A DNA stretch of 64,000 bases from Octopus vulgaris. Taxonomy: Eukaryota. The notes under the pieces were generated by a model. The model saw only the letters and a program-made list of their open reading frames with translations. It ran no database searches and was not told where the DNA came from. Position 1 is the first letter of the stretch. The number at the start of each line of letters is the position of its first letter. Location of the stretch: NCBI GenBank assembly GCA_951406725.2, contig OX597820.1:97774001-97838000 (forward strand). Reading direction: 5' to 3'. Positions 19,141 to 53,361 of this stretch are shown here, one piece after another. A program made the translations under genes and the position numbers.

Positions 19141-19206
<66 letters not shown>

Positions 19207-19283
19207 GGACGCCATGATAGAGCGTTAGCTCCTACACGCTTTTTTTTCACTCCTTTTTTTCTCTCCTTGTTTTTTTCTGTGTA

Positions 19284-19321
19284 TCTTTCTGTCGAAGAGC
19301 GTAGGCTCGAAACGTAAAAGA
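19284..19321 (+). ncRNA. Variant hammerhead (A6U core), family copy 1; element about 19205-19420
   Basis: tcttt-CTGTCGA-a-gagc(gtag)gctc-GAAAC-GTA-aaaga. Confidence 0.7.
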
Positions 19322-20088
19322 CTTGTTCTATTTCTAATCCTGAGCGCCATACTAATACATTTGTATGTTTGTACTCCACCTGCCTTCGTCTTTTGTTTAT
19401 TTTCGTAAACCTTTCCGTTATATATATATATATATATATTTTACATTTTACTTATTTTAGTAATTTGACTGTGGCCATGCGATATTTATATTTAAGCCTA
19501 GTACATATTTTATCGGTGTCTTTTATAGCATTGCTAAGTTACTGGGATGTAAACACACCAACACCGGTTGTCAAGCTGTGGTAGGAGGTACAAACACAGA
19601 CACACACACAAAATACATTCATAACAAATATATATATATGTGTGTACGACGGGCTTCTTTCAGTTTCCGTCTACCAAGTCCACTCACAAGGCTTTGGTCG
19701 ATCTGAAGCTATAGTAAAAGACACTTGCCCAAGTTGCCACGTAGTGGGACCGAACCAGGCACCGTATGTTTAGGAAGCAAGCTGCTTACCACAAAACCAC
19801 ATCATCTCTGTATAGCTTTTCGGTATCTGTTAATCTAGATATTTTTTCTTCCTTTTTGGCATGTAGGCCATCGATTATGTACCAAAAGCGTTAAGTGGTT
19901 CTGTAAATAGTACAATCAAAGTAGTTCAGAAACTTTAATAGCAGTTTGCTTACATGATTCCGAAAGAATAAATTTTGAGGAAAACATTTTTTTGCAAAGA
20001 CTACGCCTGATACAGATTAAGCTGTGAATATGTGTCACATCAAAGCAATTATAATACGATGACACACATAAATATGTACTAAATACAA

Positions 20089-21736: not shown

Positions 21737-22295
21737 TTTGGTCGAAAACTTCCTGGAAAGTTCCGATGATTTCCCAACTTCCGGGAAATTTGGTCTAAAA
21801 TCGCCTGGAAAGTTCCAGGGACTTCCCACTTCCGGGAAAATTGGTCGAAAATTTCCGAGGTTTCCTACCTTCCGGGATATTTGGTCGAAAACTTCCTAGA
21901 AAGTTCCGAGGATTTCCTAGCTTCCATAAAAATTGGTCGAAAACTTCCTGTGAAGTTCCGGGGATTTTCTAACTCCCGGGAAATTTGGTCGAAAACTTCC
22001 TGGAAAGTTCCTATGATTTCCTACCTTCCGAGATATTTGGTCGAAAACTTCCTGGAAAGTTCTGGAGATTTCCTACCTTCCGGGAACTTTGGTCGAAAAC
22101 TTCCTGGAAAGTTCCGATGATTTCCTACCTCCCGGGAAATTTGGTCGAAAACTTCCTGGAAAGTTCTGAGTATTTTCTAACTTCTGGGAACTTTGGTCGA
22201 AAAGTTCCTGGGAAGTTACGAGGATTTTCTAACTTCCTGTAAATTTGGTCGAATAGTTCCTGGAAAGTTCCGAGTATTTTCTAACTTCCGGGAAA
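21737..22295. repeat. 52-bp minisatellite, about 11 units
   Basis: TTGGTCGAAAACTTCCTGGAAAGTTCCGAKGATTTCCTAMCTTCCGGGAAAT recurs at 21738, 21790, 21841 (short), 21881, 21933, 21985, 22037, 22089, 22141, 22193, 22245. Confidence 0.95.
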
Positions 22296-22820
22296 TGTCA
22301 GTGTTGAAATATGCAGATGATATCAAGCTGTACCTTGAAATAAAAAGAACAGATCCTATCCTGCAATCAGATCTGGATAGAATGCAGCAGTGGACCTCTG
22401 ACTGGCAACTCAGGCTATCTGTAGACAAGTGTGTCACCATGCATTTTGGGAGGAGAAATCTAGCTTTTACATACTCCCTCAGCAACACCAATCTCAAGAA
22501 GTCTTCTGGTGGACATGTTCTGGGTATTATTGTAAACAACAATCTGCATTGGACATACCACATATCTAAGATTGTCAATAAGGCTGAGGTGGTACTAGCA
22601 TCACTCAGTAAGACCTTTGTCAGTCACTCTCCAGTTATCTATTTAAAATTGTATACAACAATGTCCACACTTGGAATTTGCATCACCAGTCTGGAACCCC
22701 TCTCTTTCTTAGCATATAAATCTCCCGAAAACTGTTCAGAAATGTGCAACAAAGCGAATACCCACCGTCAGACATCTACCATACTCTGAAAGTCTTGCAT
22801 TCCTGGGCATGGATACCTTC
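22296..22820 (+). mobile_element. CR1-type LINE reverse transcriptase fragment
   Basis: LKYADDIKLY...LQSDLDRMQQWTSDWQLRLSVDKC..MHFGRRN...LGIIVNNNLHWTYHI. Confidence 0.85.
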
Positions 22821-24926: not shown

Positions 24927-24949
24927 GTAATAATAATAAAAAAATATAA

Positions 24950-25415
24950 AAGATCAGACAAAAAGGATATGTTTATTAATTGACATGAGTATTCCATGTG
25001 ATCACAATATAGCGGCGAAAGAATTTGACAAGATTAGTAAATATAAAGACTTGCTAATAGAAATTGAAAAAATGTGGCATCTCAAAGCGACTACAGTACC
25101 AGTGATTGTAGGATCTCTAGGAATGATAAAAAAAGGTACTGAAACCTATTTGAAAATGATTTCAGGCTTACCATCCCTACAGGAAGTGCAAAAAAGCGTA
25201 TTAACTGGAACGGCTCTTGTACTGAGAAGAGCACTATCGCTGTGAAAATAACATCCATCCATGAATTTATTTATTTATTAATTTTTGAAATACATATCTT
25301 ATCTGTGAATTTGCGTGTGTAATCTGGGAATACATACAATGAGCTTCTCTGCCCTAGGTGTATGGAAAACACTCGGCGAGAAACGGAAGAAAATTTGAAG
25401 AAAGAAGGAAAAAAC

Positions 25416-25876: not shown

Positions 25877-26755
25877 GAGTTGAATAAAGTTAAAACATGG
25901 TCTGGTTTTTCATGTATTCTATTATGGTATTTCAATATTAAAAAAATATTTTGTTTAATGTTTATAAACTTCAATTAGCGCTTTCATAAGTTCGTAGTAA
26001 CCATCAGATTTCAAGAATGTGTTTAACTGACAGTTGAGTTCTTGACAATTGTCGTACTCCTTAGAACGCTCTAACTATCTGAGATTTTGGGAATGCAGTT
26101 TTGACCAATCCACATGCAGTTAAACGTCACGGTTTGCCGGGCGTACCGATATTCTGTAATTTGTTTATATTCATATTTTAAAGATATTTTTCAATCCATA
26201 TACTTAACTGATTGTTATATTATTGCTGTTATTTCCGTTGAGAACAGGTTTGAATATTTTAATAAACCGTTTTCCAGCCTCAGTTGTGTCAAGCAGTTTG
26301 ACCACATGTTTCAATATGTTGGCTCAATGGAAATTGGCGAACATTAGTGTTCTGGATTTGTTTTCTGTGGACTCATGAGCATTCGGATAATGAATTCCCT
26401 ATCTCGCCTATATATAATTCCTTGCAATTTGGGCTTTTAATGCAGTAGATCAAATATCTGCTTTTGCCGTTCGTATCTGCATTTCCAAAAATCTCTACAT
26501 ATTTTGTTCTAATGGGTCTAGCAGTATACCTGTATTGACACGTTCCACATGTTATCATTACACTTGGATACTGTGGATGTTTTATCCTGTTTGTTCATGT
26601 TGAATTTTGTCTGTTAAATACATTTAGAAATCTGATGATTACTACGAAAACGCCGATTGAATTTTATGAACATTATAAAATGTTTTTAATGTTAAAATAC
26701 CTTAATAAAAAACGTGAAGACCAGGCCATGTTTTTACTTTATTCAGCTGATATAT
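25875..26755 (-). mobile_element. 5'-truncated Penelope-like element with an inverted terminal repeat
   Basis: GIY-YIG remnant CGTC...LIYCIKSPNCKELYIGE (26373-26558); 25875-26035 is an inverted homologue of 26610-26755. Confidence 0.85.
25973..26010 (-). ncRNA. Minimal hammerhead motif (A9G here; the partner at 26629 keeps CTGATGA)
   Basis: aat-CTGATGG-ttactacgaacttat-GAAA-GCGC-TA-att; stem III AGCGCT is palindromic. Confidence 0.65.
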
Positions 26756-26940: not shown

Positions 26941-27161
26941 CTTTATTTTAAGCAGCAGAAAATTCAACAAAATCTGTTACTCTGAGTTTCTCGTTGCCGT
27001 TCATCAGACAGTTTTTGCTAGAAAAAACTGTCTGATGAACGGCAACGAAAACTAGATATATTTTGTTGAATTTTCTGCTGCTTAAAATAAAGCATATTAC
27101 TCTACCACTGGTATTTGAGTACTCTTTTTTCCACCTTGTTTCACATTTATGTGTTTACTCC

Positions 27162-27208: not shown

Positions 27209-27992
27209 TCAGCATTATACAATAGAATCGTATATTCACAAATGCTGAGCATAGATATTGATGCAAGCATGTACGTATAATTTTCCATATTGAATTTAAT
27301 AATGCGACATGAAGACGATTACGAAACGGCTGTAACCATACAGAAATCAGAGGGAAAATATATCTATCATCACTTCTCACACCTCCCTGACACTATATAT
27401 TATTTACTTTGCGTGAAAGTAAACTGAAATTTCCTTGATTATCAGTTGCTATATATATTACATTACATGATAATTGAGTACTACGTATACTGATAGTGAT
27501 CCGAATGGGAAACTTACTGTAATCACTCCATGATTCCCTGAATCTATATTTTACGCGACTCTTTATATATCTATATCTAGATGTATGCAGATATATTTGA
27601 GTATCAAGAACGTTATTCATGCTAAGAGCTTAAGTGAGGGAAAAACCTGTTGTATATACATCAAGTTTAACTCAATCAGTGACGTGATATAATTCCGCAA
27701 TCATATAAATAACAGCTGTTAAGGTAAAGAAGTTATGAGCTATTCGTGAACATCATGATTTTCTACTTTTTATTCTCTCTATGTATGTATGTATGTATGT
27801 ATGTATGACGGTACGTATGTATGCACGCACATATACATACTGTATATATATATACATATATGTGTGTATTTATATGTATATATAAATATATATAACGGGA
27901 AGCTTTATGAAAATAGACAAAAGACGAAGGCAGGTGGAAAACAAACAAACAATTGTATTAGTATGGCGCTCAGGAAATATAAATAAAACAAG

Positions 27993-28030
27993 TCTTTAAC
28001 GTTTCGAGCCTACGTTCTTCAACAGAAAGA
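27993..28030 (-). ncRNA. Variant hammerhead (A6U), copy 2; element about 27894-28295
   Basis: tcttt-CTGTTGA-a-gaac(gtag)gctc-GAAAC-GTT-aaaga. Confidence 0.65.
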
Positions 28031-28290
28031 TACACAGAGAGAAAAAAACACAGAAAGAAGGAGAGAAAAAAATGCGTGCAGTAACTAACGAATCAACATG
28101 GCGATCTGATTTCGGCCAGAGGTCAAAGATCAAACATGAGACGCGAGAGCGAAATAAGGGGAGATAATAGGGTTGATAATAGGGTTGAATGACCAGCATG
28201 AAATGAATGTAAAAAAAGTGGTAATATATGAGAAAATAAAAATACAACAAACGGGACAGTTTATGCGAACAAGTTCAAGGTTGAAAGTTC

Positions 28291-29642: not shown

Positions 29643-31733
29643 GCACAATTACTACTTCAAGGACATGTATTACATCATAGATTCTACGTTGGGGATGCAA
29701 ATCCTCACAGTCGCGTACGACAGAGTGGGGCACCAGCACAAAAACGAAGCGTCCATCCCGTCTTTCACTCAATGTAGAATGAGGAAGTTTGGATGTTGAG
29801 GTAATGTAAATAAGTAAATAAATATATAAGTATATAAATACACAGACGTGAAAAAGATAAAGAAGCGAGAATTAAGGATGAAAGATTAAAAAAAAAAATA
29901 AATATAGAAATATTAAAAAATCTAAAAAAATATTTTAAAAATATAAAAAATATAAAAAGATATAAAAAATATAAAAATATATTAAAAAAATATAGGGATA
30001 AGGGATGCAAAGTGGTTAAGAACTAACAAGGTGGTCAGGGAGATGACATATTCTGGTTGTAGAAGCGGCGGGTGTCATAAATCAACTAGAAGGTCTGGAG
30101 ACCCAGTATATGGTTAATTATGGTTGTCTGGTTAAACTGTTTATCTATTTCCTCGTAAATTGTCTAGTGGTCAACATGTACATACGTACCCGCATGGATA
30201 CATATACACATATACACGCATACATATACACACGCATACACATCTACACGCATACATACGTATTCTCGTGTAAAAATATATCGAGAGGGGTGTGCATATA
30301 CGTCCGTCCCGCCACGTACGTATATCTGAGTCGCCTCTGCACACGCACTCGTATACACACAAATACATGCTCATGCGTACATAAGTAGAGCCCGCCCGTC
30401 TACCCACCCACATACGTATATGCTCACATACATAATATCTCAATATACACATACATATGGAAAAAGGCGCATGTAGTTGGGTACAAGAACTGACGCACAT
30501 ACGTACGTATACACATACACGTACATGCGCACATACAGACACACTCACACACCCACTCATACACATGAGGAAGTAAAACTCTATGCTAATGGACAAAGAT
30601 ATGCATACACCCACATCCACACACATGGGGGAGTAAATCCCCATGCATATACACAAAAATATGCATATGTGCATATGCACAGACACAGGTATAACAAGCA
30701 GATCCCTTCCCGCACGCAGGCAGGATGGACCTATATGCTCTAAATGTCTGTCTTAGAGAGGCGTGACGGATGCAAACCATTGTAATAACATAAGTGGGTA
30801 GGGTAATTAGCAGGTTACAGGGGTGTACGGGTAAATCAGAAAAGAAAGAGACAAAGAAGAAAATAAGAGGCAAAGAGAAAAATTGAGAAGGGATAAGAAT
30901 AAAAATAGGTAAAAATATATATATATATTGTTGTATTTCGGGACGGTAATTTTTTTTTGCCAAATAAACACACGCACTATATATTTGTTCTTAATTCGTT
31001 GAATCTAGTTAGTTTGGCTGCCACCATTTCAAAAATTAAAGTTTATCGAAAATTTTAAAATTTGGCACATCAATATACTTTTCCAAGCTGAATTGCTGGA
31101 GTTATTTCCCTTTTTCCAGAAAATGTTTTTAAAATGTTATAAGTGTGATCATTTTCACCCAGTCCTGAAACAGAGGGAAAGCTGATGAGAATGAAGGGAA
31201 GGCTACGAAATGTGAGAGAGGTGGAGCGAGAAAAAGATATATATATATATATATATACGACGGGCTTCTTTCAGTTTCCGTCTACCAAATCCACTAGCAA
31301 ACTTGGGTCGGCCCGAGGCTACTGTAGAAGGCACTTGCCCAAGGTGCCACGCAGTGGGACTGAACCCAGAACCATGTGGTTGGGAAGCAAGCTTCTTACC
31401 ATACAGCCACTCCTGGCTTCTTTCAATTACCGGAACAAATCCACTCACAAAACTTTGACCGACTCGGTGCTATAGTAGAAAGTACTTACCCCAGTGCTGC
31501 ACAGTAGGACTGAACCGAAGGTCACATTATTTCGATGTAAGCTTCTTAACTATACAGCCACTCCCGTGCCTGCGCACACACGTGCACATTCATAGACACA
31601 AATACGCGCACGTACGCACGCACATATACATACATAACGGGAAAGTTTACGAAAATAAACAAAAGACGAAGGCAGGTGGTGTACAAACAAACAAATGTAT
31701 TAGTATAGCGCTCAGGAATAGAAATAGAAAAAG

Positions 31734-31771
31734 TCTTTTACGTATCGAGCCTACGCTCTTCGACAAAAAGA
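31734..31771 (-). ncRNA. Variant hammerhead (A6U), copy 3 (extra C3U and GATAC changes); element about 31635-31860
   Basis: tcttt-TTGTCGA-a-gagc(gtag)gctc-GATAC-GTA-aaaga. Confidence 0.6.
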
Positions 31772-31875
31772 TACACAGAAAAAAACAAGGAGAGAAACAA
31801 GGAGAGAAAAAAATGCGTGTAGGAGCTAACGATCTATCATGGCGTCCTGACTTCGGCATATATACATACACACAA

Positions 31876-37910: not shown

Positions 37911-38349
37911 ACGGCAAATAAGAAAGAGAAGAGGATACAAAATCGACAGACATCAAGCGGTAAACATCCTAGTATGTCTTTTTATTCCAATATATTAGAT
38001 GAATTCATACTCATGTACTAATAGTACAGAAATGAGGAAATGAGCAGATTGTCAGTAGGTAATGACAATCTGCACCTTTGCTAATTTCTGTACTATTAAT
38101 ACATGTGTATGTATTTCATAAGTAGACATACTAGAATGTTTACCGGTTGATGTCTGTCGATTTTGTATCCTCTCTACTTCCTTATTTGCCGTGTGCTTTC
38201 TCTCCTTGTCTCTTTCTGCGTTCCTTTCTGTTGAAGAGCGTAGGCTCGAAACGTTAAAGACTTTTTCCACTTCCCAAGCGTTATACTAATACATCTGTTT
38301 GTTGTCTACATCACCTGTCTTCGTCTTTTCTTTTTTTTGTGAATTCACC

Positions 38350-38352
<3 letters not shown>
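37911..38352 (+). mobile_element. A6U-hammerhead family element with a long 5' fold-back; hammerhead copy 4 at 38224-38259
   Basis: Imperfect palindrome 37911-38192 centred near 38058, then cttt-CTGTTGA-a-gagc(gtag)gctc-GAAAC-GTT-aaag and tail to (TA)n. Confidence 0.8.
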
Positions 38353-38411
<59 letters not shown>

Positions 38412-53136: not shown

Positions 53137-53204
<68 letters not shown>

Positions 53205-53293
53205 AGAATTCACCAAAAAACCCCCAAAAGACGAAGACAGGTGGTGTAGACAACAAAGAGATATATTAGTATAACGCTCGGGAAGTGAAAAAG

Positions 53294-53331
53294 TCGTTAA
53301 CGTTTCGAGCCTACGCTCTTCTACAGAAAGA
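53294..53331 (-). ncRNA. Variant hammerhead (A6U), copy 5; element about 53201-53335
   Basis: tcttt-CTGTAGA-a-gagc(gtag)gctc-GAAAC-GTT-aacga. Confidence 0.65.
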
Positions 53332-53361
53332 ATGTAAAGTGACTATCGATCTATCATGGCG

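Follow-up and report, generated by a model that had tools for sequence, protein, structure and literature searches.

The five hammerhead motifs in a 64-kb stretch of octopus DNA (64,000 nucleotides, hereafter the window) have uridine in place of adenine at core position 6, and they sit in truncated copies of a Penelope-like element (PLE). Taking the evidence together, we consider it probable that the U6 hammerhead, carried in the repeat of an autonomous Neptune-type PLE, would be a slow, protein-assisted cutter of dimers and that transposition would proceed from uncut RNA.

Motifs in the window and their parent element

A pattern search for the 38-nt hammerhead motif recovered 5 copies in the window, and no further copy was found within 9 substitutions elsewhere in the 64 kb. 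The initial annotation had described five dispersed copies, giving the low coordinate for those on the minus strand, and its reading of the letters was borne out. Position 6 is U in 5/5 copies, N7 is C, U, C, U and A, N17 is A, U, A, U and U, and stem III is a loopless AC/GU palindrome with a predicted cut after 19316. Compared with the minimal hammerhead core (C3 U4 G5 A6 N7 G8 A9...G12 A13 A14 A15.1...U16.1 H17), all positions of the family motif matched except A6. Stems I and II, the extra nucleotide after A9, the G10.1-C11.1 pair and the palindromic 15.2/16.2 positions are present, the last without an intramolecular stem III. A 111-nt Rfam scan returned no hammerhead match to the motif at E<=10. 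For the whole window, only microsatellite-driven miRNA matches appeared among the 150 of 390 matches listed.

Copy a, on the forward strand at 19206..19420, is flanked by (TA)n tracts and is the 5'-truncated 3' end (a pseudo-LTR fragment) of a Neptune-type PLE. Its subfamily state is U6-C7-A17, and it is 93-96% identical to 39 other genomic copies listed. The minimal type I hammerhead motif of this copy (19284..19321, + strand) was delimited by sequence, with positions numbered by analogy to Cervera and de la Pena 2014. Stem I pairs 19284-88 with 19317-21, C3 is at 19289, U6 at 19292 and the extra A at 19296; stem II occupies 19297-19308, G12 is at 19309, and the loopless stem III spans 19312-15. 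Copy b (27886..28197, - strand) is a truncated end of the youngest, intact-ORF subfamily (U6-U7-U17), and its motif (27993-28030) has a mismatch in stem II. Copy c (31630..31857, - strand) is a truncated end whose motif (31734-31771) is decayed, with C3U and A14U. Copy d (38196..38363, + strand) is a truncated end of an older subfamily with a motif (38223-38260) intact in its core save U6. Copy e (53202..53361, - strand, ends approximate and taken from the alignment) is a truncated end that has lost internal sequence ahead of its motif (53294-53331), and the motif has a mismatch in stem I. Thus 2/5 window motifs (19284 and 38223) have an otherwise intact core and stems, and 3/5 are damaged. 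The surrounding repeats are 160-310 nt long, with a variable 5' end and a TA tract ~105 nt downstream of the motif. Dimerisation in cis is implausible for the window copies, which are solitary.

Extending the long copies upstream revealed a reading frame with the reverse transcriptase (RT) motif YIDD and a GIY-YIG endonuclease. A protein search of the genome gave 15,623 candidates; the 150 that were scored were all 93-100% identical. Sixteen stretches around the longest frames were taken and 13 were read from the ATG, with 8/13 frames intact (1,064-1,080 aa from the ATG) and 5/13 stopping early. The eight intact ORFs are 99.1-99.9% identical over 1.8 kb, and YIDD and a CX4CxxC linker before the endonuclease are found in 8/8. 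Pfam matched RVT_1 (E 3.8e-8) and GIY-YIG (E 0.005, under its cut-off) on a 962-aa frame and nothing on two C-terminal fragments; relatives of the element carry PF00078 and PF01541. The PDB held no relative by sequence. In one intact copy (L125) the frame continues ~120 codons past the endonuclease into a variable-length pyrimidine-rich simple repeat before the stop.

Tandem units of the element are 4.4-4.6 kb long and have the same U6 motif in each repeat. The motif occurs once per repeat, one lying ~750 nt ahead of the ATG and the other ~3,750 nt beyond it. Insertions end ~105 nt downstream of the predicted cut and sit in (TA)n. Within tandem units, the position at which solitary copies stop is followed by a short TA run, and the 5' region of the following unit comes after that. 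The element also shows three PLE features, namely partial tandems that form pseudo-LTRs, truncated copies in inverted orientation, and microsatellite targets. Judged by the CX4CxxC linker and domain order, the element is an EN+ PLE of Neptune/Nematis type; the protein tree has no named reference rows, and the clade rests on these two characters. Because the long copies are coding and carry U6 in each repeat, the window copies are 5'-truncated ends of an autonomous element.

The initial annotation had proposed a non-coding, PLE-dependent family. This part did not stand, since the window copies are truncated ends of a coding element and copy b matches the repeat of the intact copy L125 at 97% identity across 313 nt. 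An autonomous PLE sharing the same 3' end, which the annotation had suggested looking for, is present with intact RT and GIY-YIG frames. From its sequences the family is very abundant, recently copied and protein-coding. A non-LTR retrozyme or non-coding SINE-like family was also considered and rejected, as the 5' ends vary and grade into the ORF and the long copies are coding.

Other repeats were seen in passing. A fold-back at window positions 26984-27054 gave weak Rfam miRNA matches. It holds a hammerhead-like core that belongs to a different family and has a short stem II, and it is probably not a miRNA but a PLE stub in inverted orientation. Other mobile-element fragments were recognised by eye at 733-1107, 1515-1862, 22181-22789, 24940-25245 and 26286-26453; they include a mariner-like transposase, the GIY-YIG end of another PLE and LINE-type RT pieces, and the last interval had a weak tblastn match to the PLE endonuclease. 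Genome-wide, a very abundant repeat (L141, L142, L144, L146-L151 and others) carries a canonical minimal hammerhead with a 6-bp stem II. It is often preceded by a tRNA-like head (likeness by eye) and a (TAA)n tract, and it may be a SINE carrying a hammerhead.

Position 6 across the family and the direction of change

The genome searched has 227 contigs totalling 2.8 Gb. When any base was allowed at positions 6 and 7, the 27-nt core had 16,332 exact matches compared with 0 for the reversed control, an abundance far above chance. U6 was found in 96 of the first 100 matches listed, and A6 in 180/16,332. Because core-based searches select on the core itself, a flank-based sample was added, consisting of 60 copies (the first 30 loci listed from each of two downstream-flank searches). 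The motif was present in 47/60 and the other 13/60 were truncated before or within it. U6 was found in 45/47 motifs and A6 in 2/47, both in old subfamilies. These counts agree with the earlier view that U6 is the family-wide state and not local decay. AC/GU is the majority state of stem III in every subfamily sampled. RNA contigs from four runs, one of them thinly covered, contained no position-6 variant at 5%; such contigs cannot show RNA ends, strand or level.

Old A6 copies with a GUAG-type loop (L061, L033/L338, L346 and L202) form a loose cluster in a DNA tree of 184 short 3' ends, and they may be a pre-U6 subfamily, with weak tree support. That tree has weak internal support, A6 copies were deliberately over-sampled in it, and it was used only to view the subfamily ladder. 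L200 and L201 represent a minor and old U6 subfamily whose loop II is UUCG. Its stem II contains a U-U mismatch, and no other stem II change shared among copies was seen in the lineage.

Exact cores numbered 14,515 for the canonical general form, 23,490 for U6 and 11,457 for C at position 4 genome-wide. Non-canonical cores thus make up 34,947/49,462 (71%) over these three exact pattern classes, exposing a counting bias.

Some canonical families have stem II and flanks in common with the U6 family. Tracing one of these families to its reading frames led to an active sister lineage, which has ~60-70% amino-acid identity to the U6 element, units of roughly 6.2 kb and long open frames. Position 4 is C (U4C) in 20/20 stretches fetched from this lineage (L240-L259, e.g. 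L246 and L249), and older members have the canonical core. In a protein tree of 27 rows, built in quick mode and rooted on a distant row, the U6 lineage is sister to the U4C lineage, and the pair falls within PLEs from metagenome contigs (SH-aLRT 99-100). Outgroup PLE loci yielded 15 exact-core motifs in 13/78 loci, all U4 and A6, and 65/78 had no exact-core motif on the sense strand. There were 5 one-mismatch matches vs 7 on the opposite strand, none of them a U6 or C4 motif. As positive controls, the motif finder recovered the U6 motif and one of two U4C motifs. Because the tree has this shape and the outgroup motifs are U4 and A6, A6 is ancestral and the U-turn changed separately in the two lineages. 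On this sequence evidence U6 is derived and fixed, and the sister lineage fixed U4C instead. The U4C element has a very long (CA)-rich 3' region containing a GC-rich island.

Selection on the fold and predicted cutting

Among the 47 flank-selected copies with the motif, 3/38 motif columns vary (second state in at least 15%), namely the stem I end, N7 and N17. Variable columns numbered 14/49 in the downstream flank (Fisher p 0.027) and 8/12 upstream, with columns treated as independent on one lineage ladder. N7 has all four bases across subfamilies while adjoining positions are fixed, and N17 is A or U at the subfamily level. At stem I pair 2.4:1.4 the U6 lineage has C-G where the sister lineage has G-C, a compensatory change, and families that retain stem II have different loop II sequences. 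Because variation across U6 subfamilies is confined to N7, N17 and the stem I end, the hammerhead fold looks to be still under selection in the U6 family. Flank-selected copies showed no covariation of stem II or loop II inside the family, so conservation for some other sequence-level reason is possible.

Mutations in the U-turn are costly in published hammerheads. The natural A6C hammerhead of phage Bcep176 is slow (Perreault 2011, PMC3088659), and an engineered A6C ribozyme was reported to cleave at 3.55e-6 per min in 0.3 mM Mg2+, compared with ~0.3 for A6 (Naghdi 2020, PMC7151607). In the pairwise scan of Roberts 2023 (PMC9901934) the CUGA-turn mutants were all low in activity save the C3:G8 swap. 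No published A6U cleavage rate was found, and the A6C data and averaged U-turn data serve as proxies. From these mutants the U6 motif is predicted to cut weakly. The canonical minimal hammerheads of PLEs are themselves slow, and that of the Anolis PLE was reported to cut only with protein and to be dispensable for insertion in vitro (Frangieh 2024, PMC11167929). Slowness and read-through are shared by canonical PLE hammerheads, so U6 may change little.

The genomic footprint bears on whether templates are cut before they insert. Read-through was seen in 47/60 flank-selected copies, which extend past the motif, and 1/60 begins at the cut site. Among motif-less copies, 1/18 starts at the cut (own-genome loci examined). 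Read from this footprint, efficient cutting of the templates that insert is excluded. Because insertions end 105 nt past the cut, the template would have been uncut or re-ligated. The end of solitary copies at the TA run of the tandem unit fits internal priming on uncut RNA, as in Anolis Poseidon.

The initial annotation took the family to use an obligate-dimer ribozyme. It is unlikely, on balance, that such a ribozyme retains full competence because something such as the invariant loop II or the protein makes up for A6U, and that its cleavage supplies the unit-length RNA the element needs. Such competence would account for the fixation of the other core positions across diverged subfamilies with N7 and N17 free, and for U6 in the youngest intact copies. 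It would also account for the truncation junctions. Truncations joined to (AT)3 were counted by hand in 28 distinct loci listed out of roughly 270 (2 x 137 reverse-strand matches); 10 clear and 2 ambiguous cases start at most ~2 nt from the predicted cut, making cut-adjacent starts commoner than those at any other site among the 28 distinct copies listed. However, 4-5 of 28 start at the matched TA site in loop II, the excess at the cut is not significant (one-sided p 0.07-0.15), and it is confounded by TA microhomology with the target. The position of the insertion ends, noted above, also counts against competence, as do the pairwise data, in which no double mutant other than the C3:G8 swap rescued the CUGA turn (PMC9901934), and the insertion of the Anolis element despite catalytic mutants (PMC11167929). 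The truncation junctions are compatible with some cutting in vivo.

The preferred reading, a slow and protein-assisted cutter, accommodates these observations as follows. The element endonuclease would nick a (TA)n target, and reverse transcription would start internally at the TA run ~105 nt past the ribozyme and read through the ribozyme of uncut tandem RNA. Truncation at the 5' end would leave solitary stubs such as the five window copies, inert in place. Slow dimer cleavage with protein help would occur only in tandem transcripts. Selection would keep the hammerhead fold and the catalytic guanines and tolerate a weakened U-turn, because fast cutting would not be needed for insertion. Since this core letter is altered in almost every copy, the element has likely gone on spreading while its cutter was weakened.

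Predicted folding did not separate the variant and canonical motifs. In U7 subfamilies U6 permits a predicted helix of 4-7 with 14-16.2 that closes the core (pair probability ~1.0). Such a helix lends some weight to the motif being catalytically dead and kept as a protein-binding or folding RNA element, or as a DNA element such as a promoter or endonuclease site, a reading we regard as quite improbable. It would be consistent with the conservation of loop II and stem II sequence without covariation, with an additional U-U mismatch in stem I of the youngest U4C subfamily, and with the promoters that reside in PLE repeats according to a review (PMC6765202). Against it, the variable positions are those that hammerheads leave free and N17 stayed A or U. 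The core-closing helix is not diagnostic because canonical relatives misfold as strongly, their off-pathway monomer folds being predicted equally stable. A convergent lock of the core in a rod-like fold was tried as a general explanation and rejected; U4C did not stabilise that helix in its own background, the canonical relatives misfold as strongly, and changing U6 to A raised the opening cost in 2/6 natural backgrounds.

Least likely is a functionless vestige killed by A6U, its 38 nt looking conserved only from a short drift time in the master lineage: Naiad and most Chlamys PLEs are reported to spread without canonical hammerheads (Craig 2021, PMC8557442) and the core is damaged in both active lineages of the genome, but both flanks gained many subfamily changes and indels while 35/38 motif columns stayed unchanged, and N7 took four states with its neighbours fixed. 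The 47-copy sample already points to core and stems changing well below the rate of neutral flank sites.

The weakened hammerhead might even be favoured rather than just tolerated, as A6U and U4C were fixed separately, the fold was kept, and jointly these cores outnumber canonical ones by >2:1. We hold this to be doubtful. If true, the PLE hammerhead would be a deliberately throttled, protein-gated switch or an RNP scaffold, and core-exact descriptors would miss most successful PLE hammerheads.

Comparison with known systems

The U6 motif departs by a single letter from a known system, the minimal hammerhead of PLEs, and does not constitute a new ribozyme class. PLE hammerheads are nearly universal in canonical PLEs; they are poor cutters, and in the one in vitro system they were dispensable for insertion. 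The octopus genome offers a matched natural experiment in which a common stem II is combined with canonical, A6U or U4C cores, and the A6U and U4C cores sit on young intact elements whose protein could be expressed. Nothing describing A6U in a PLE, or octopus-type families such as these, came up in the literature compared, which left aside the Lunse 2017 alignment and repeat databases.

Like the metazoan minimal hammerheads described by Cervera and de la Pena 2014 (PMC4209133), the octopus motif is type I with a 4-5 bp stem I, has an extra nucleotide between A9 and G10.1 and a G10.1-C11.1 pair, is palindromic at 15.2/16.2 with no loop 3, and follows a U-rich 5' flank. It likewise occurs once per repeat, in copies that are mostly solitary and truncated. 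It differs in having U at position 6; U4 and A6 are found in 56/56 motifs of their Fig. S3, whose descriptor required the core. None of the Fig. S3 motifs is from a cephalopod, and the core covariation reported there is U3-A8. The very short palindromic stem III and the PLE association are shared with the variants of Lunse, Weinberg and Breaker 2017, which, as summarised in a review (PMC6765202), cleave as dimers at low rates.

The parent element resembles the Neptune/Nematis EN+ PLEs of Craig et al. 2021 (PMC8557442) in its single ORF, with RT followed by a C-terminal GIY-YIG domain, and in its linker, which is CX2-5CxxC in that group. Pseudo-LTR partial tandems, inverted truncated copies and microsatellite targets are also common to both. 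Unlike those elements, it has a non-canonical hammerhead core. The initial annotation had anticipated that a CUGANGA descriptor would miss the U6 motif, and it does; that string was used in Craig 2021 (PMC8557442).

Anolis carolinensis Poseidon (PMC11167929) offers the closest parallel for the proposed mechanism, with an internal RT start downstream of the hammerhead and an uncut RNA template, both of which are proposed for the octopus element. The C3G and G8C mutants showing that the ribozyme cuts with protein are Poseidon's own. The Poseidon start site is reported as not homologous to its target, whereas the octopus unit has a short TA run matching (TA)n. A natural change at position 6 is also known from the A6C hammerhead of phage Bcep176 (PMC3088659, PMC7151607), to which the low Mg2+ activity belongs. 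Unlike Bcep176, a single phage sequence with C and a full stem III, the octopus family has U fixed in >20,000 copies of an active animal retroelement.
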